Below are positions 1,856 through 26,836 of a DNA stretch of 32,000 nucleotides, piece after piece; within the stretch, counting starts at the first letter, position 1; each line of letters opens with the position of its first letter. The position numbers and the translations under genes were made by a program. The notes under the pieces are model-generated. The model did no database searches and was not told the DNA's origin. It saw only the letters and a program-made list of their open reading frames with translations. Origin of the DNA: Deinococcus radiodurans R1 = ATCC 13939 = DSM 20539 (GTDB lineage Bacteria > Deinococcota > Deinococci > Deinococcales > Deinococcaceae). The stretch is taken from NCBI RefSeq assembly GCF_000008565.1, contig NC_001263.1, positions 1,668,602 to 1,700,601 of the forward strand. The letters run 5' to 3'.

Positions 1856-3417
1856 ATGGGGCGGAACGTAGCGGCGGAATACAACAAAGGCACCTTGGGC
1901 GAGTTTCTCCGCCTCTCGCCGCGAGACGTGCAGCAGGCGCGGGCCGAGCGGCGCCCTGAGCTTGACCGGGTGGCCCTGGCCGCTGCCCTGCGCGAATACC
2001 ACCGCGACCTGGGCACGCTGGACGCGGGCGTCGAGGCATTGCTGACGCGGCTCTCCCACCCCGAATCGCGCGTCGTTGTGACTGGGCAGCAGGCCGGCCT
2101 GCTCACCGGCCCCGCCTACAGCGTCCACAAGGGCGCGGGCGCGGCACTTCTCGCCCGGCAACTCGATGAGGAAGACACCCCGGTGGTCGCCGTGTACTGG
2201 GTCGCCAGTCAGGACCACGACGCCGAGGAAGTCGCCAGCACCACGCTGCTCGACCTCAACGAAGACCTGCACCGCCTGACCCTCGACGTGCCGCCCGGCG
2301 TGCCGGTGGGCCGGGTGACGTGGCGCGAGGAGTGGACCGCCGAGGTGCTGGCGCTGCTTGACCGCTTCGAAGCTCCCACCGAGTACAAGGACGCCGTTCG
2401 CGCACGGATAGAGCGGGCCATCGCGGGCGGCGAGCGCCACAGCTACGCCGACGTGTTCGCCCGCCTCGTTCATGGGCTGCTCGCCCCCGCCGGGCTGCTG
2501 GTCCTCGACCCGCTGCACCCCGCGCTCGCCCGGCTGATGGCCCCGGCGCTTGCGCGCGAGCTTGAGCAGCCGCTCGCTTCCTCGGCGCGCATCGAGGACG
2601 CTGCCGAGCGTCTCAGCGCTGCCGGGTTCACGCCGCAACTGCGCCGCCCGGCGGGCGCGACCAATCTGTTTGTCGAGGAAGACGACAGCCAGCGCCGCCT
2701 GCTGCGCTTCGATGGGCAGAGCTTCAGCACCGAGACGCACCGGTATACCCGCGCCGACCTGCTTGCGCTGCTGAATGCCGACCCCTCCCGTCTGACCCCC
2801 GCCGCAGGCTGCGCCCGGCGATTCAGGACACGCTGCTGCCCACCCTCGCCTTCGTCGTCGGCCCCGGCGAAATCGCGTATGGAGCGCAACTCAAAAACGT
2901 GTACCCGCTGCACGGCTTGCAACAACCCCTACTGTGGCCGCGCCTGAGCGTGACCTGGCTGGAACCCAATGTCGCCCGCTTGCTGCGCCGCCTCCGCGCC
3001 AGCGTCGCCGAGGTGCAGGCCGACCCGGCGGGCGTGCTGGGCCGCGCCCTGGCCGCCGAGCGGGACGCCGGGGCCGTGAGTGCCGAACGCCTTCAGAGCA
3101 TCGAGGCCGAGCTGGAGCGGCTCATCGGCGACCTCGCGGCCCTCGACCCCACCCTGGTCGGTGCTGCCGAGCGCACCCGCAAACGGGCCCTGCCGCGCGT
3201 CGCGCACCTTCAGCGCCTCGCCGTGAATGCCCTCGCCCGCGCCGAAAATGAGCGCAGCGGTCAGCTCACCCGTCTGCAAAAGCACCTGCTGCCCAACGGC
3301 ACGCCCCAGGAACGTGAAATGAACTTCCTGACTTACCTGCTCAAGCACGGCGACACCCCGCTCCGGCAACTGCTGGCGCTGGACGCGGGGTTCGTAGGAG
3401 AAGTCGAGATTCCGTAA
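1856..3417 (+). pseudogene. bshC: Bacillithiol biosynthesis cysteine-adding enzyme BshC, interrupted by a 1-nt frameshift near 2807-2809
   Basis: Track ORFs 1856-2947 and 2899-3417 are the two halves of one BshC-like protein. The N-terminal half has VVTGQQAGLLTGPAYSVHKG. After the shift the frame reads [30 protein letters not shown], which aligns with B. subtilis BshC ([24 protein letters not shown], recalled from memory). Codon phase changes from position-mod-3 = 2 to 1 between 2795 and 2809, which fits one missing base. It could be a genuine mutation or a sequencing error. Confidence 0.75.
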
Positions 3418-3436
3418 TCATCCTCTCCCCCGACGT

Positions 3437-3578
3437 CTGATACGGTTTCAAATTGAGTCCCGGAGATGTCCGGGCGCAATTTTGCGCGGAGCGCATGGAA
3501 AAAATACGGTTTTAAGGCGATGGACGGGCATCCGGCGCCTTTCCGGATGTTCGGGAATCGGATTCAAACCGTATGACG
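3437..3578. repeat. Hairpin-rich MITE/SNR-like intergenic element A with terminal inverted repeats
   Basis: Arms GATACGGTTTCAAAT (3439-3453) and ATTCAAACCGTATG (3562-3575) share a perfect 9-bp core ATACGGTTT/AAACCGTAT. Internal stem-loops are CCCGGA-GATG-TCCGGG (3459-3474) and CATCCGG-N7-CCGGATG (3529-3549). A third ATACGGTTTT copy lies at 3504-3513. GC is visibly lower than in the flanking genes. Confidence 0.4.
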
Positions 3579-3653
3579 CATTTGACAAAAAGAGGGCACA
3601 GCTTTTTGGTGAGCGCACTCGGAGAACTGCTCCAGGGCGAGGGATCGTCCCGA

Positions 3654-3730
3654 CTCATACGGAGCTGAGTGCGCGGAAGAGATGGCGGCGCTTTTCCGAC
3701 TTCTCTGAAGAAGAGTTCAGCTCCGTATCA
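3654..3730. repeat. MITE/SNR-like element B with 12-bp perfect terminal inverted repeats
   Basis: ATACGGAGCTGA (3657-3668) pairs with TCAGCTCCGTAT (3717-3728). The termini TCATACGG...CCGTATCA resemble those of element A (TGATACGG...CCGTATGA). The right arm overlaps the stop codon of the ABC ATPase gene (3728-3730). Confidence 0.4.
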
Positions 3731-4525
3731 GTGCCCCAGAATCTTGCTGAGGAACTGCCGCGCCCGCTCGTGTTGCGGGTTCTGGTAGAAGGCCTCGGGC
3801 GTCGTGTCCTCCACGATGTTGCCCTGGTCGAAGAACAGGATGCGGTCGGCCACTTCGCGGGCAAAGCCCATTTCGTGAGTGACGACCAGCATGGTCATGC
3901 CGGTGCGGGCGAGTTCCTTCATCACGTCAAGGACTTCCTTGATCATCTCGGGGTCGAGGGCCGAGGTCGGCTCGTCGAACAGCATGATCTTGGGTTCCAT
4001 CGCCAGAGCGCGGGCAATGGCGACGCGCTGCTGTTGCCCGCCCGAAAGCTGCGCGGGGAACTTGTAGGCCTGCTCCTCGATGCCCACGCGCCGCAGCAAA
4101 TCCAGGCCGCGCGCCTGCGCCTGCGCCTTGTCCACGCCGCGCACACGGGTGGGGGCCAGGGTGATGTTGTCGAGCACCGTCAGGTGGGGAAACAGGTTGA
4201 ACGACTGAAAGACCATGCCGACCTCGCGGCGAATGGCATCGAGGTTGCGGGCGCCCTGAAGCGGCAGGCCATCCACCGTAATGGAGCCGCCGTCGTGGGG
4301 GTCGAGCGCATTGATGGTGCGGATAAAGGTGCTTTTGCCGCTGCCCGACGGCCCGATGATGACGACCACTTCACCCTGGCGCACGGTCAGGTTGACGCCG
4401 CGCAGGGCGTGAAAGGTGCCGAAGTGCTTCTGCACGTTCTGCGCCACGATGATCGGCTCGCCCACCGTGCGGGCAGAGACGGCCACCGCGCCGGCAGCGG
4501 GGTCAGAGGAAAGGGGAGCAGTCAT
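3728..4525 (-). CDS. Polar amino-acid ABC transporter ATP-binding protein (GlnQ/HisP-like)
   Basis: 265 aa with Walker [13 protein letters not shown] signature [15 protein letters not shown], Walker [13 protein letters not shown], and an H-loop in VVTHEMGFA. Confidence 0.92.
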
Positions 4526-4746: not shown

Positions 4747-5706
<960 letters not shown>

Positions 5707-5814: not shown

Positions 5815-6363
5815 ATGAGTGATCCCACCAAACCGATTTCATCCGACCCCGCGCTGTCGCCGCCCGGCCAGGAGATGACCGAGGGCGAGCGCCGCGCCCT
5901 GGAAATGGTCGAAGCCGCCGAGACGGGCGGGCGCAAGCTCCTCGGCTGGCAGGCCGGCCTGGTCACGACCATCGCCGTCGCGTGGTGCCTGTTTCAGATG
6001 TACGCCGCCTGGAACGGCACGCTGGTGCCGACCACCCTGCGGGCGATTCACCTCGCCTTCGCTTTTGCGCTCGCCTTTCTGGTCTTTCCCTTCCGCAAGA
6101 CGCCAGGGCGCCCGCAGGTCGGGATTCCCTGGGGCGACTGGTTACTGGGGCTGCTGGCGACTGGGAGCGCCGCCTACTTCGTTATCGAGTACGCCAACAT
6201 CGCCGCCAACGGGGGAATCCGCGACGGGGTGCCCGCCGACTTGTGGGCTGGGAGCGCGCTGGTCGTGATGCTGCTGCTCGCGGCGTGGCGCACCATCGGG
6301 ATTGCCATGCCGCTGATTTCCACGGCTTTTATCCTCTTCGCCTTCATGGGCGCCAAGGGACTC
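5815..6363 (+). pseudogene. TRAP transporter fused (4TM/12TM) permease, 5' fragment truncated by the IS insertion
   Basis: GAGGA (5806-5810) then ATG 5815. The product is a hydrophobic TM-rich N-terminus (LVTTIAVAWCLFQMYAAW...LAFAFALAFLVFPF...). The frame runs into the IS at 6364 and stops at 6430-6432. Confidence 0.85.
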
Positions 6364-6594
6364 TTGAACCTCACACGACTAAAGTCGCGTGATTCTCACT
6401 TCGCAGACCATTGCCCGCCGAAGCAGGTCTGACATAGCCTCCATGAGCGTTTAAGGTGTCTGAGATTCCCGCAGCCACCAACGCTTCACGCCGAATGTTC
6501 AGCGCAGCGTTCTCGTCTCGGTCATGGGTTTCCCCACAGTTCGGGCAAGTCCATGTACGGACGGCAAGATTCTTCACTTCGGGATTCTTGAATC
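6348..6594 (-). ncRNA. TnpB guide RNA (omega RNA / reRNA): scaffold from the tnpB 3' end and IS right end, plus a 16-nt guide from flanking host DNA
   Basis: The minus strand ends ...CAGACCTGCTTCGGCGGGCAATGGTCTGCGAAGTGAGAATCACGCGACTTTAGTCGTGTGAGGTTCAA|GAGTCCCTTGGCGCCC. It contains a UUCG-capped helix inside CAGACC/GGTCTG and the right-end hairpin. This matches my memory of the published ISDra2 scaffold. The scaffold/guide junction is at the IS end (6364/6363), with the 16-nt guide running to 6348. The 5' end (231-nt scaffold assumed) is uncertain. Confidence 0.75.
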
Positions 6595-7597
6595 CGCAGT
6601 CATGACACAACTGGCTAGATGGAAAGTAGGGGCTGACTTTAGATACCAGTCGCCCGTACCACGCTGCCTTGTATTCCAACTGCCGGATGAACTCACCCCA
6701 GCCCGCATCACTGATGCTCAGTGCAAGGCGGCGATTTTTCCGCATGTTGTCGGGTTTAAGGTGTTCGGTTCCGATGATTTCGTACTCACGCACCAGGGAG
6801 GTGGTGAGCTTGTGAAGGAAATCCTGACGCTTATTGACAATGCGCTTGTGAATCCGAGCCAGCTTGGTTTTCGCTTTCCCGTAACGTGCGCTGCCCTTCT
6901 TCCGTCTGGACAGGGTTTGCTGAGCTTTACGAAGTCTTTTCAGGGTGGAGCGGTAATATTTCGGATTCTGTTCATGCTTAAACCTCACGCCATCGGTCAC
7001 GATGGCAAAATCCTTGATGCCGACATCCACACCCGCTGCAAACTTGGGAGCCGCAGGCAGGTAGGGAATCTCGACTTCACAGAGAACGGACGCTTCGTAA
7101 TGGCCTTCGTGAATACGGCGCACAGTGACATTCAGAATCTTCCCTTGAATATCCTGCTGGCCCTTGGTTTTCACCCATCCCAGCTTAGGAAGTTTGAGCC
7201 TACCTTCCCCAATTTGGATGTTGTTGTTGGTGAATTGAGTCCGGTAGGACTCTCCCGTGCGCTTCTTTCTGAAACGTGGGAATCCTACCTTTTTACCGGA
7301 CTGCTTCACAGTCCGAAAGAAGTTCTTGTACGCGGTCTCAAGGTTTTTCAGCGAGTTCTGCAAAGCAAACTTATCTACTTCCGAGAGCCAGGAGGTTTCT
7401 TCAGCCTGCTTCAGAAGGGTCAGTTCGCTACTCGTTTGCCCGTAGGTCAGTCCCTTCCCGCTTTCCTTGTAGGCCGCAATGCGACGGGCAAGGAAGTGGT
7501 TGTAGACGAACCTTGCGCTACCCAGCGTGCGGTTAATCAGTTCAGTCTGAGCCGCATTTGGGTACAGCCTGACCACGAAAGCCTTATTCCTTATCAT
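6371..7597 (-). CDS. tnpB: TnpB, RuvC-type RNA-guided DNA endonuclease (OrfB_IS605 / Cas12 ancestor)
   Basis: 408 aa. By direct count the RuvC triad is D191 ([10 protein letters not shown]), E278 (IIGTEHL) and D361 ([12 protein letters not shown]). Zinc-finger cysteines are at C331/C334 and C351/C354. The N-terminus [14 protein letters not shown] is as in ISDra2 TnpB. Confidence 0.97.
6372..6391 (-). repeat. Right-end subterminal imperfect palindrome (TnpA recognition hairpin)
   Basis: Minus strand CACGCGAC-TTTA-GTCGTGTG: an 8-bp stem with one G.T mismatch at position 4. Its foot lies 8 nt from the right-end cleavage point. Confidence 0.75.
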
Positions 7598-8006
7598 GCT
7601 GGCTCTCTATGTATTTCTGAATCTGAGCGCGGGTGTTTTCAGAAACAGTCAGGATGCAATACGACGGGTTCCAGAGATTGCCGCCCCACAGCTTTTCTTT
7701 CAACTGCGGGTAGGCCACGAACATCCGACGTGCGGAAGCGCCTTTCAGCGCCTTCACGAAGTCGGGGATGGCTTGCTGTGGGGTTGCGCTTAGCAGGAGG
7801 TGAACGTGGTCAGGCATGACTTCCATCGTGATGACTTCCAGCCCGTTCTGAGCGGCAATGTCACGCAGGATGTCTTTCAGTCCATCAGCAACCTCACCCA
7901 CCAACACCTGATGACGGTATTTCACGCACCAGATGAGGTGGTATTCAAGCTGATAGACGTAACCCCGGCCTTTCTTCATCTCAAGGGGAAGAATAACATA
8001 TGTCAT
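7584..8006 (-). CDS. tnpA: TnpA, IS200/IS605 Y1 HUH single-strand DNA transposase
   Basis: 140 aa with the HUH motif H67-V-H69 (PDHVHLLL) and catalytic Tyr132 (QKYIESQ). It overlaps the tnpB start by 14 nt (7584-7597). Confidence 0.97.
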
Positions 8007-8012
8007 CTGGAA

Positions 8013-8018
8013 AAGCTA
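8013..8018 (-). promoter_or_regulatory. Possible -10 box TAGCTT, 6 nt upstream of tnpA ATG 8006
   Basis: Minus strand CTCTAGCTT-TTCCAG-ATG. It fits TANNNT and the leaderless spacing seen elsewhere in the window. Confidence 0.3.
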
Positions 8019-8063
8019 GAGGCTTCCGCTTTTCATCGCCCTTTTCAGGGCGAGAGGGGCTAA

Positions 8064-8083
8064 CTCATGACTGAAGTCACGAG
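8064..8083 (-). repeat. Left-end subterminal imperfect palindrome (TnpA recognition hairpin)
   Basis: Minus strand CTCGTGAC-TTCA-GTCATGAG: an 8-bp stem with a G.T mismatch at the same position as the right-end hairpin. It lies 16 nt inside the left-end cleavage site. Confidence 0.7.
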
Positions 8084-8099
8084 TGTGCGCCCCTCAAGC

Positions 8100-9674
<1,575 letters not shown>

Positions 9675-9789: not shown

Positions 9790-10329
9790 ATGAAAAAGAT
9801 TCTTCTGGCAAGTGTGGCCGGCGCGGGTCTGCTGGCGAGTTGTGGCGGCGTGCTGACTGCTGACCCGGTGACGAACCTCGCCGTGAGCAGCTACAGCACC
9901 GATTGGCAGCTGAACAGCGACGTGCGCGATCAAAACGGACAGGTCATCCCCAAGGGGACCTACCTGATCTGCGACAACAAGAACACCAAGATGCAAGTCG
10001 GTGTGACCTTCCAGGGAGGGTTGCAGCAACTCGCCCTCCAGTTCAAGGGCTACAACACCGGCACCACCAAGACGGTGGCCACCAACCCCCTGAACGCCAC
10101 CAACTCCTCGGGCAGCGGCACCTACGAGTACACCTTCGGTCCCAACACCGCCCCCCTGAGCGTGGGCGGCGGCAACCTGAGTGCTCAGGCCATTATCGTC
10201 AACCCCATCACCAACGTGACTGTCAAGGGCTATACCTACGTGCGCGTTCAGGGTTATGACCTGGCTGGCAATGCCAGCAACGTCGCCACCAGCCCCACGG
10301 CTATTCCTGTCGCCGACTGCGCCAGCTAA
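9790..10329 (+). CDS. Hypothetical lipoprotein (Thr/Asn/Gly-rich, probably beta-rich)
   Basis: GAGAGG (9783-9788) then ATG 9790. Signal peptide with lipobox MKKILLASVAGAGLLAS-C-GG. No family recognised. Confidence 0.65.
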   Translation: MKKILLASVAGAGLLASCGGVLTADPVTNLAVSSYSTDWQLNSDVRDQNGQVIPKGTYLICDNKNTKMQVGVTFQGGLQQLALQFKGYNTGTTKTVATNPLNATNSSGSGTYEYTFGPNTAPLSVGGGNLSAQAIIVNPITNVTVKGYTYVRVQGYDLAGNASNVATSPTAIPVADCAS

Positions 10330-22814: not shown

Positions 22815-24191
<1,377 letters not shown>

Positions 24192-24204
24192 GGCCGCGCC
24201 GCCT

Positions 24205-25638
24205 TCACCCGATCAGGATGTCCCGGTCTGCCGGGTAGCGGGTAAGCATCTTTTCGGACGCCGGACGGCTGAACGCCACCGCGAAAGTCAATGGCCCGAT
24301 GCGCCCCAGGAACATCAGCGCGATGAGGACGGCTTCCTGCGCGGTGTTGAGCAGCGGCGTGGTGTTCATGCTCAGGCCCGCCGTGCCGAAGGCACTGACC
24401 GTCTCGAAAAAGAGTTGCAAGAACAGCACCTTCTTGTTGGTGTTGAGCAGCAGCATCAGCATGAAGCCCGCCGTGACCAGCCCCATGCTCAGCAGCCCCA
24501 CCGTCATGGCACGCAGAAGCGTCTCGGTGTCGATGCGGCGGTCAAAAAGCGTGGTGTCGCGCCGCCCGCGCACCATGCTCCACGCCGAGGCGACGATGAC
24601 GTAAAAGGTGTTCGTCTTGATGCCGCCGCCCGTAGAGCCGGGGTTGGCCCCGATGAACATCCACACGATGGTCATGAACAGCGCCGGAAAGCCCATCAGC
24701 CCGTAGTCGAGGGTGTTGAAGCCCGCCGTGCGCGGCGTCACGCTCTGAAACCACGATGCGAGCAGCTTGCCGTGCAGCGGCAGCGGCGCGAGCGTCCCCG
24801 GGTTGTTCCACTCGGTCAGGGCGAAAAACACGGTGCCGACCACCAGCAGCACGCCCGTCATGGTCAGTGAGAGCCGGGTATTCGTGCTCAGGCGGTTGCG
24901 GCGGCGGTCGCGCAGCCAGCCGAGCAGGTTGAGCTGCACCAGAAACCCCATGCCGCCGAAAATGATCAGCAGCGTGACCACCATGTTGATGAGCGGGTCG
25001 GACACGAAGCCCGTCAGGTTGGTGGAATAGAGGCTGAAACCCGCGTTGTTGAACGAGCTGATGGAGTGAAAAATGGCGTAGTAGATGCCGCGCAGTACGC
25101 CCTCACGCGGAATGAATGCGGGCAGCAGCAGCAGCGCCCCGAGGCCCTCAAACAGCAGCGAGGTCAGCACAATGGAGCGCACCAGCGAGGTCGCGCTGCC
25201 CAGGCTGGTCGCACTCACCTGCTGCTGCGCGTTGATGCGCCCGATGACTCCCAGCCGCCGCCGCAGCGCGAGCGCGAACAGCGTGCCGAGCGTAATGATG
25301 CCCAGCCCGCCCACCTGAATCAGCAGCAGCATGACGCTCTCGCCGAACACGTTGAAGGTGCTGCCGGGGTCCACCACCGCCAGCCCGGTCACGCACACGC
25401 AGCTCGTCGCCATGAAAAGGGCCTGGATAAAGGTGATGGACTTGCCCGCCTCGTGCGCGAACGGCAGCCACAACAGCACGGCCCCGATGAGAATGGCGGC
25501 GGCAAAGGTCAGCGCGATGAGTTGTGGGGGCCGCAGGCGCGAGGTCCAGGGGCGGCGGGTTTCCGCCGGGCGACCCGGTCCTCTTTGGCTGGCACTCTGG
25601 GAGGCCAGATCACGCGGGGCAGGGCCAGGACGGGTCAT
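24205..25638 (-). CDS. trkH: TrkH/KtrB-family K+ transporter membrane subunit (copy 2, paralogue)
   Basis: Same architecture as copy 1 (ATSCVCVTGL, GGLG, SSFNNAGF, TPRTAGF, GSTGGGIKT, AGLS). The start is placed at ATG 25638 (MTRPGPAP...). It lies 13 nt upstream of copy 1. Confidence 0.88.
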   Translation of the reverse strand: MTRPGPAPRDLASQSASQRGPGRPAETRRPWTSRLRPPQLIALTFAAAILIGAVLLWLPFAHEAGKSITFIQALFMATSCVCVTGLAVVDPGSTFNVFGESVMLLLIQVGGLGIITLGTLFALALRRRLGVIGRINAQQQVSATSLGSATSLVRSIVLTSLLFEGLGALLLLPAFIPREGVLRGIYYAIFHSISSFNNAGFSLYSTNLTGFVSDPLINMVVTLLIIFGGMGFLVQLNLLGWLRDRRRNRLSTNTRLSLTMTGVLLVVGTVFFALTEWNNPGTLAPLPLHGKLLASWFQSVTPRTAGFNTLDYGLMGFPALFMTIVWMFIGANPGSTGGGIKTNTFYVIVASAWSMVRGRRDTTLFDRRIDTETLLRAMTVGLLSMGLVTAGFMLMLLLNTNKKVLFLQLFFETVSAFGTAGLSMNTTPLLNTAQEAVLIALMFLGRIGPLTFAVAFSRPASEKMLTRYPADRDILIG

Positions 25639-25650
25639 AGAACGGGGCGG

Positions 25651-25659
25651 ATTGTAGCA
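25651..25659 (-). promoter_or_regulatory. Extended -10 TGcTACAAT, 12 nt upstream of ATG 25638
   Basis: Minus strand GGTGCTACAAT-CCGCCCCGTTCT-ATG. Confidence 0.5.
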
Positions 25660-25703
25660 CCGCGCCGGGCCAGGGCCGCGCGGCTCACATGGACCGACCG
25701 GGC

Positions 25704-25709
25704 TATACT
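25704..25709 (+). promoter_or_regulatory. -10 box TATACT, 8 nt upstream of ATG 25718 (leaderless-type promoter)
   Basis: GGGCTATACT-GCTCCGCT-ATG. No SD. It is divergent from the trkH promoter. Confidence 0.5.
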
Positions 25710-25717
25710 GCTCCGCT

Positions 25718-26836
25718 ATGCCGCGCCCCCGTTCCAACAGCAACCCCGCCTACGCCAACCGCTCGTCTGTGGGCAAAACCAGCAAAAAGAGCCGTCCCAA
25801 GGGGGACTACCGCGCCCGGCAGCCCGCGCGCGAGTACGAACTCGACGTGCTGCCGGGGCTGGAGGAGGTGGCGGCCACCGAACTTGCGGGGGTCCCGCTC
25901 GCCCGCGATGTCCGGGGCCTGCGCTTCTGGTATCCCGGCAGCCCCGAGCGGCTGACCCGGCTCCGCTCGGCGGTGGCCGTCTACCGCATCAAGTCCTGGG
26001 ACGTGCCGCGCCCGCGCGGGCTGCTCGGGCACCAGCAACTCGGCGAACTCGTCAGCTACGTGCGCGAGGTGACCGAGGTGGGCGGGCACCGCTCCTTCCG
26101 CATCGGCGCGGCGGGCAAGGAGTCACCGACCATGCAGCGGCTCGCCGAGGAACTCAGCGCGGCGCTCGGCCTGCCCCACGACCCCGAGGAAGGCGAACTG
26201 CTGCTGCGGCTGCGGCCCTCGGCAGATAGGCAGGGCGCGGACGGGCAAGGCTGGGACGTGCTCGCCCGCATTACCCCCCGGCCCCTCTCGGCGCGGGCGT
26301 GGCGCGAGTGCAACATGGGCGGGGGGCTGAACGCCACCATCGCCTACGCCATGCATAAACTCGCCGGGCAACGCGACGAGGACCGCATCTTCAACCCCAT
26401 GAGCGGCAGCGGCACCCTGCTCATCGAGCGGGCGCTGCTGGGGCCGTATGCCGCGCTCGTCGGGGTGGACATCGACCCCGTTGCCGTGGCCTGCGCCCGC
26501 ACCAACCTCAGGGCGGCGGGCAAGGAAGTGGAGGTCGCGCAGGTGGACGCGCTGCACACCGGGCTGCCTTCCCGCTCCTTTGACCTCGTCATCAGTGACC
26601 TGCCGTGGGGAGACGCCATCGGCTCGCACCAGAGCAACGAGACGCTTTACCCCGCCTTCCTCAAGGAAATGCACCGCCTGACCAGTCGCCGGGGCCGGCT
26701 GTGCCTCCTCACCCACGAACTGCGCCTGTTTGAGCGCGTCATGCGCGAGCAGAGCGACTGGGAAGCGAAGGAACTGTTTCAGGTCTACAGCGGCGGGCAC
26801 CACCCGAAGGCGTACCTGCTGCACAAGCGGGGATAG
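25718..26836 (+). CDS. THUMP-domain class I SAM-dependent RNA methyltransferase (Trm14/TrmN/RlmL-like m2G type)
   Basis: N-terminal ferredoxin-like/THUMP-like part, SAM motif I FNPMSGSGTLLIE, VGVDID, and motif IV DLPWG. Confidence 0.7.
   Translation: MPRPRSNSNPAYANRSSVGKTSKKSRPKGDYRARQPAREYELDVLPGLEEVAATELAGVPLARDVRGLRFWYPGSPERLTRLRSAVAVYRIKSWDVPRPRGLLGHQQLGELVSYVREVTEVGGHRSFRIGAAGKESPTMQRLAEELSAALGLPHDPEEGELLLRLRPSADRQGADGQGWDVLARITPRPLSARAWRECNMGGGLNATIAYAMHKLAGQRDEDRIFNPMSGSGTLLIERALLGPYAALVGVDIDPVAVACARTNLRAAGKEVEVAQVDALHTGLPSRSFDLVISDLPWGDAIGSHQSNETLYPAFLKEMHRLTSRRGRLCLLTHELRLFERVMREQSDWEAKELFQVYSGGHHPKAYLLHKRG

Follow-up and report, generated by a model that had tools for sequence, protein, structure and literature searches.

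A stretch of 32,000 nucleotides from the chromosome of Deinococcus radiodurans R1 (NC_001263.1, positions 1,668,602 to 1,700,601 of the forward strand; hereafter the window, whose numbering is used unless another sequence is named) contains a copy of the insertion sequence (IS) ISDra2, which encodes the transposase TnpA and the RNA-guided nuclease TnpB. We consider it very likely that positions 6364-8099 are the intact copy ISDra2F, that the guide of its right-end RNA matches the IS-free allele of its own insertion site, and that TnpB cuts this allele, with homing of the element as the outcome. A first-pass annotation, made from the letters of the sequence alone, had proposed such an ISDra2-type TnpB with a right-end guide RNA. 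The features discussed below are collected in Table 1.

Table 1. Features of the ISDra2F locus, in window coordinates
Feature	Position	Strand	Remarks
Complete ISDra2, copy ISDra2F	6364..8099	-	DR_1651-DR_1652 of D. radiodurans R1; basis: zero-mismatch copies, length, locus assignment, GC content
tnpA	7584..8006	-	140-aa Y1/HUH single-strand transposase; Pfam Y1_Tnp, 2.3e-43
tnpB	6371..7597	-	408-aa RNA-guided RuvC nuclease; Pfam HTH_OrfB_IS605, OrfB_IS605 and Cas12f1-like_TNB
Left-end subterminal imperfect hairpin	8054..8095	-	TnpA recognition structure; inner stem 8063-8084
Right-end hairpin CACGCGAC-UUUA-GUCGUGUG	6372..6391	-	TnpA recognition hairpin in DNA; omega-RNA stem 4 (-28..-9)
TTGAT	8100..8104	-	TnpA insertion/excision target pentamer and TnpB target-adjacent motif (TAM); adjoins left end; function from PMC8612924 and PMC2806898
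TTCAA, right-end terminal pentamer (transposon-encoded motif, TEM)	6364..6368	-	Includes pseudoknot 3' strand; adjoins target in occupied site; TEM concept from PMC10055086
Omega RNA (right-end element RNA, reRNA)	6348..6594	-	247 nt, -231G to +16C, as published; mature TnpB-bound core -116..+16 = 6479-6348
16-nt guide segment GAGTCCCTTGGCGCCC	6348..6363	-	Host DNA, antisense to TRAP permease gene; contained in northern probe V; abuts TTGAT in L026, L029 and L030
Pseudoknot 5' strand GAA (-105..-103)	6466..6468	-	Pairs with UUC (-5..-3) at 6366-6368; pairing stated in PMC10097598
Host gene, 5' part	5815..6363	+	Fused TAXI-TRAP transporter permease; single open reading frame (ORF) regained on deleting 6364-8099
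Host gene, 3' part	8100..9674	+	DctM domain; Pfam DctM, 4.8e-72

Identity and ends of the ISDra2 copy

The sequence at 6364-8099 showed zero mismatches to the ISDra2 copies in CP150840, CP031500, and CP050116, its 1736 bp equal the published length of ISDra2 (PMC2806898), and its GC content is 52.7% versus 66.4% in the flanks. TnpA was 100% identical to the ISDra2 transposase of PDB entries 2XM3 and 2XQC. Comparison of the 408-aa ORF with known proteins, a check that the first-pass annotation had asked for, returned a 100% match to the structures of ISDra2 TnpB, the protein being residue-for-residue identical to PDB 8BF8, 8EX9, 8EXA, and 8H1J, "RNA-guided DNA endonuclease TnpB". By direct count, the RuvC triad lies at D191, E278, and D361, and the zinc cysteines at C331/C334 (CHDC, 331) and C351/C354 (CPNC, 351), in agreement with the triad and the CxxC...CxxC finger read earlier from the translation; the same residues were named as catalytic center and zinc ligands by Nakagawa et al. 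in 2023 (PMC10097598). The two genes overlap by 14 nt. Together with the omega RNA described below, the TnpB, TnpA, and 1736-bp identities bear out the earlier identification of the element as ISDra2. By its sequence, the element is a member of the IS200/IS605 family, inserted 3' of TTGAT in a TRAP-transporter permease gene.

Additional copies and empty sites were obtained by exact-protein look-up. Over 11.7 kb, the window was 99.99% identical to the D. radiodurans R1 chromosomes CP150840, CP031500, and CP015081. CP150840 is the chromosome of strain ATCC 13939K, which retains only the functional copy DR_1652-DR_1651 and one strain-specific copy in pilT (PMC11219805). Exactly two sites were returned from CP150840, the window's site and a pilT-type site, and since these match the two sites of 13939K, the copy in the window is ISDra2F. 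DR_1651-DR_1652 is also the "unique active ISDra2 copy" of ATCC 13939 that was used by Pasternak et al. in 2010 (PMC2806898). A scan of one genome per species with TnpB gave no D. radiodurans locus, its best match being 85% identical, and a plasmid collection contained no ISDra2 copy, only relatives that were ∼78% identical and short Clostridium matches.

The second, independent insertion (loci L020 and L023) lies in a T2SSE/pilT-type ATPase gene and comprises all 1736 bp without a mismatch. On the left, its flank parts from that of the window exactly at TTGAT; on the right, the divergence begins with the base that follows GGTTCAA. Because an independent, identical copy diverges precisely there, the ends of the element are placed directly after TTGAT and at the last base of GGTTCAA. 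In eight Deinococcus relatives (TnpB 55-85% identical), similarity is likewise gone directly after GGTTCAA, and the left junction of related Deinococcus elements is TTGAT or TTGAC. Both ends that had been proposed, GGTTCAA terminating at 6364 and TTGAT at 8104-8100, are thus confirmed, the latter pentamer being also found left of the copy in the ATPase gene. The TEM TTCAA is kept in 10 of 11 related elements. In several relatives (L002-L005 and L008), the left junction is apparently TTGAC instead of TTGAT, and a single right end has TTCAG; the junctions were projected from a BLAST match, and an error of 1 nt in their placement is possible. These variants suggest a drift of TAM and TEM inside the subfamily.

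Each end has a subterminal imperfect hairpin, and terminal inverted repeats are lacking, as is characteristic of the IS200/IS605 family. Folded as DNA, the left-end hairpin reached -13.4 kcal/mol (z -3.9), and the right-end hairpin had a z of -3.75; for either hairpin, 0 of 200 shuffles equaled the observed value. The left-end hairpin is ∼90% conserved among the relatives.

These data leave almost no probability to the view of this copy as a relic, decayed or silent, with intact-looking ORFs and ends yet neither movement nor a ribonucleoprotein. What could favor it is that a scan of 6100-8300 turned up no consensus promoter on the IS strand, but such a sigma-70 consensus scan captures Deinococcus promoters poorly; a terminator scan of the same interval was uninformative. 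Against a relic stand the match, free of mismatches along all 1736 bp, with a copy that recently transposed into pilT in strain 13939K, the designation of DR_1651-DR_1652 as the only active copy in ATCC 13939, and the new insertions or circular junction already reported from this very copy (PMC2806898).

In L022 (GCA_965136095.1, contig CBCRWM010000001.1; ISDra2 at 2498-4233), the DctM-side left flank of the window is followed by an identical ISDra2, and the right flank differs from that of the window and reads GTTTTGTGCCTCGTCG, within an SNF2-family gene, which gives a third insertion site and guide. Either two copies recombined here or the assembly was collapsed across copies of the IS. In the R1 genome CP094462.1 (L027), a 401-aa TnpB is annotated at 7625-8830, without gene calls for tnpA or DctM; over 11.7 kb, the alignment to the window opens 15 gaps, and these look like indel sequencing errors of that assembly.

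The omega RNA, its guide and its fold

RNA positions were numbered on the minus strand, with -1 at 6364 and +1 to +16 at 6363 to 6348. In this numbering, all the bases named by Nakagawa et al. (PMC10097598) matched the locus, namely, -231G, -117U, -116G, -105G, -103A, -91U, -86C, -84C, -81A, -77A, -71U, -48A, -42U, -35U, -32G, -10U, -5U, -3C, and +16C. Northern probes I to V of the same study mapped exactly to 6570-6594, 6514-6538, 6458-6482, 6403-6427, and 6348-6372, respectively, and probe V (GGGCGCCAAGGGACTCTTGAACCTC) covers, as reverse complement, the right end together with the locus's own 16-nt flank. Since all probes and numbered bases match, the published 247-nt omega RNA corresponds to 6594 to 6348 of the window, guide included. 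The 16 nt past the right end had been read on the IS strand (6363-6348) as GAGTCCCTTGGCGCCC, which proved correct, and this guide occurs once in the window. The tnpB stop codon occupies omega-RNA positions -10 to -8.

The published omega RNA was expressed, was trimmed to ∼130-160 nt on TnpB, was solved by cryo-electron microscopy (cryo-EM), and was used for cutting a TTGAT-flanked 16-nt target (PMC10097598). An reRNA of ∼150 nt with a flank-derived 3' end of ∼16 nt was also described by small-RNA sequencing (PMC8612924). As the published RNA is that of this locus, the checks of RNA binding and of in vitro cleavage that the first-pass annotation suggested have effectively already been published, from work in Escherichia coli or in vitro. 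Rfam 15, which is without a family for the ISDra2 omega RNA, matched no family anywhere in the window when gathering thresholds were applied, and at E<=10 over 6200-8300 it returned only chance matches to snoR113 and RAGATH-25.

We mapped the published architecture (stems 1, 2, 3a, 3b, and 4 plus a pseudoknot) onto an alignment of nine Deinococcus elements. Standard pairs were formed in 97.3% of cells, and 12 of 34 pairs showed a compensatory change on both sides. On four of five measures, 0 of 500 shuffles matched the observed value, and controls in which the register was slid were 30-40% paired. Stem 2 reads CUCA/UGAG, CCCG/CGGG, CUCG/CGGG, CCUG/CAGG, or CCUA/UAGG across the relatives; stem 3a (AGGCUAU/AUGGUCU) was 90% paired, with both sides changed in 4 of 7 pairs; and stem 3b, the UUCG-capped stem, is real and covaries. 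Stem 4 has 8 bp with one G.U, was paired in 100% of the relatives, and has 2 compensatory pairs; its loop (-20 to -17) is disordered in the cryo-EM structure (PMC10097598). The bases of the pseudoknot, which was not recognized earlier, were verified at the locus and were 100% paired in the relatives. The RNA is therefore folded into stems 1 to 4 plus the pseudoknot, and not into the CAGACC/GGTCTG helix that had been thought to enclose the UUCG-capped stem. Of the structured RNA proposed at the outset, the UUCG-capped stem and the 8-bp right-end hairpin stand, as both covary, but the enclosing helix does not: it was paired in 65% of cells across the nine relatives, showed zero compensatory changes, is without cryo-EM support, and competes with stem 3a. 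With a structured scaffold that overlaps the 3' end of tnpB and the right end, and a pseudoknot ahead of the guide, the RNA has the organization of an OMEGA (obligate mobile element-guided activity) RNA.

Empty alleles and the proposed self-cleavage and retention

Deletion of 6364-8099 joins 5815-6363 to 8100-9674 and yields one 707-aa DctM/TRAP permease ORF. A look-up with the neighboring solute-binding protein retrieved three genomes or scaffolds (L026, L029, and L030) with flanks that were ∼95% identical to those of the window. In these, the 707-aa DctM-family permease gene is intact, and alignment with the window is interrupted exactly at 6363 on one side and 8099-8100 on the other. On the IS strand, the empty alleles read ...GGCCTTGAT-GAGTCCCTTGGCGCCC..., with no duplication and no scar. 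The insertion thus lies 3' of TTGAT without target-site duplication, opposite a seamless empty site, and the junction of TTGAT with GAGTCCCTTGGCGCCC that the first-pass annotation had predicted for the empty site exists uninterrupted in all three. What is shown here, at the level of sequence comparison, is that TTGAT abuts GAGTCCCTTGGCGCCC only in the resealed, IS-free allele, as in the related genomes. The gene for the TRAP solute-binding protein (NMT1_3 family) lies at 4747-5706, just upstream of the permease. In all R1-lineage genomes seen, the IS disrupts the fused permease of this TAXI-type TRAP transporter, which is intact in the ∼95% identical relatives.

Work done elsewhere on the identical proteins has shown that TnpA moves ISDra2 as a single-stranded circle, the donor being precisely resealed; that TnpB binds an RNA derived from the tnpB 3' end and the right end and extending ∼16 nt into the flank; and that TnpB cuts double-stranded DNA in which TTGAT stands next to a match to the 16-nt guide. 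After excision from one sister or genome copy, TnpB would then cut the empty allele, and recombination with an IS-bearing copy would reinstate the element. Both TTGAT 5' of the target and a guide match are required for cleavage by TnpB, and the D191A and E278A variants are inactive (PMC8612924). In the model that Karvelis et al. proposed for ISDra2 in 2021, excision by TnpA leaves a donor joint, TnpB cleaves this joint, and the IS is restored by homology-directed repair that draws on a sister copy (PMC8612924). Retention with TnpA plus TnpB was measured by Meers et al. in 2023 in Geobacillus elements, in which single TAM changes ablate cleavage (PMC10055086). Irradiation induces the excision of ISDra2 (PMC2806898). 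By analogy, we infer that homing takes place in D. radiodurans itself.

In the occupied allele, the target is preceded by TTCAA and not by TTGAT, and this allele would be spared. TTCAA-GAGTCCCTTGGCGCCC is the sole near-match to TAM plus guide in the window, with positions 3 and 5 of its pentamer departing from TTGAT. The first-pass annotation had linked the immunity of the occupied locus to the 1.7 kb that separate TAM and target. The immunity is retained in our reading, but distance by itself does not account for it, since TTCAA directly precedes the target; protection would therefore rest on TAM discrimination at the right end and not on distance alone.

Several points weigh against self-directed cleavage and homing as the complete account. 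Homing was demonstrated for the Geobacillus homologues and only proposed for ISDra2 (PMC8612924, PMC10055086), and the cited RNA work was done in E. coli and not in D. radiodurans. The empty alleles, with their ∼95% identical flanks, are most simply explained as states before insertion, not as products of excision. We did not find in the literature a statement that ISDra2 TnpB fully rejects TTCAA. A heteroduplex of ∼12 bp is enough and TAM-distal mismatches are tolerated (Nakagawa et al., PMC10097598), so cleavage may extend to further sites in the genome. Finally, minimum free energy folding of the 247-nt and 150-nt RNAs barely beat shuffles (z about -1.9). The minimum free energy fold mispaired the guide into the scaffold and was set aside for the cryo-EM structure, which had been tested by covariation.

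We regard as improbable the alternative that TnpB is mainly a down-regulator of TnpA-driven transposition, or a nuclease that acts on other targets, the match between guide and empty site being a by-product of read-through. In a 2013 study, TnpB reportedly lowered the apparent excision and insertion of ISDra2, which counts in favor of down-regulation; however, cleavage of the donor joint followed by repair would itself lower the apparent excision frequency. The dispensability of TnpB for both excision and insertion of ISDra2 (PMC2806898) also fits this alternative, and a statement on inhibition of transposition by TnpB was looked for in the same paper and not found. On the other side, retention was directly measured for homologues (PMC10055086), and the 32 kb hold no further TTGAT next to a guide-like site. 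Cleavage of the IS-free allele, followed by retention, is accordingly the reading that we prefer.

Distant right ends, known systems and the surrounding genes

The last 32 to 35 nt of the right end (GAATCACGCGACTTTAGTCGTGTGAGGTTCAA) comprise omega-RNA stem 4, a pseudoknot strand, and the TEM. Seven Clostridium botulinum/sporogenes plasmids carry a right-end segment of 33 to 35 nt (window 6362-6396) with 100% identity. In one of them (L031, C. botulinum plasmid NZ_CP031095.1), the match lies at 3001-3035, after a 367-aa TnpB-like ORF (Pfam OrfB_IS605 and TNB) that is ∼20% identical to ISDra2 TnpB, and a hairpin resembling that of the left end lies at 1625-1645, apparently after TTTAT rather than TTGAT. 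The exact 32-nt module was also present in two IMG/VR viral contigs with a GC content of 28-33%, at 9808-9839 (+) of L032 and 6340-6371 (-) of L033. In L032, a TnpB that is 49% identical to that of ISDra2 lies upstream of the module. In L033, the module follows an omega-RNA-like scaffold, and no TnpB was detected upstream of it; this may be a TnpB-less, PATE-like element. When AT-rich elements were added to the RNA alignment, the 5' part aligned poorly, and the per-stem read-outs alone were used.

Across the elements that share the module, TnpB is ∼20-49% identical to that of ISDra2, and the remaining scaffold has diverged with compensatory changes. A speculative and rather unlikely explanation is that the right-end module is an ultraconserved, possibly exchangeable cassette, constrained both as a DNA hairpin for TnpA and as an RNA element for TnpB. 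If true, such a cassette would permit cross-mobilization or cross-loading among distant elements.

Compared with known systems, the element shares with ISDra2 (IS8301), in its R1 copy ISDra2F, the same 1736 bp, TnpA, TnpB, ends, TTGAT target, and omega RNA; even the 16-nt guide is that of the published cryo-EM and northern work, and we found no difference. The IS605 elements of ISGst2 type that Meers et al. described in 2023 from Geobacillus stearothermophilus have the same architecture of TnpA, TnpB, and omega RNA with a right-flank guide. In both, the TAM equals the TnpA target and TEM and TAM differ at positions 3 and 5 (PMC10055086), whereas the TAM of the ISGst2-type elements is TTTAT and homing was measured for them. 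IS608 of Helicobacter pylori shares peel-and-paste transposition of single-stranded DNA by a Y1 TnpA and insertion 3' of a short motif (PMC8612924), but its target is TTAC, and Meers et al. saw no activity of its TnpB in their interference assay (PMC10055086). TnpB also resembles the type V-F nuclease of CRISPR-Cas12f in its core of RuvC and TNB zinc finger, in the pseudoknot before the guide, and in the need for a 5' adjacent motif; unlike in that system, the guide of ISDra2 is set by the insertion site, and TnpB acts as a monomer (PMC8612924). A CRISPR-Cas12 system was ruled out, as no repeat-spacer array was found across the window; adaptation genes and Rfam matches to CRISPR RNA were likewise absent from it.

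Outside ISDra2, the window is ordinary chromosome. Its other genes encode BshC, a Crp-family regulator, WecG, and an ABC ATPase, these four according to the annotation of L024, as well as a ComM-like Mg-chelatase, a peptidase M3, two tandem TrkH paralogues, a cysteinyl-tRNA synthetase (CysRS), a DAO oxidoreductase, and a methyltransferase. The window contains no recognized tRNA gene. The TrkH-family cation transporters (22815-25743, minus strand; 458 and 512 aa) explain the direct repeats D1, D2, and D4, which have a spacing of ∼1.39 kb and 70-86% identity in patches.

The locus, this copy, and its guide are all already known from publications. The value of the present analysis is one of calibration, in that the founding architecture of TnpB and omega RNA, with its ends, TAM, guide, and self-homing, was recovered from sequence alone. 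A transposon-encoded, RNA-guided ancestor of Cas12 that is aimed at its own vacated site is important biology, published between 2021 and 2023 and used in genome editing.

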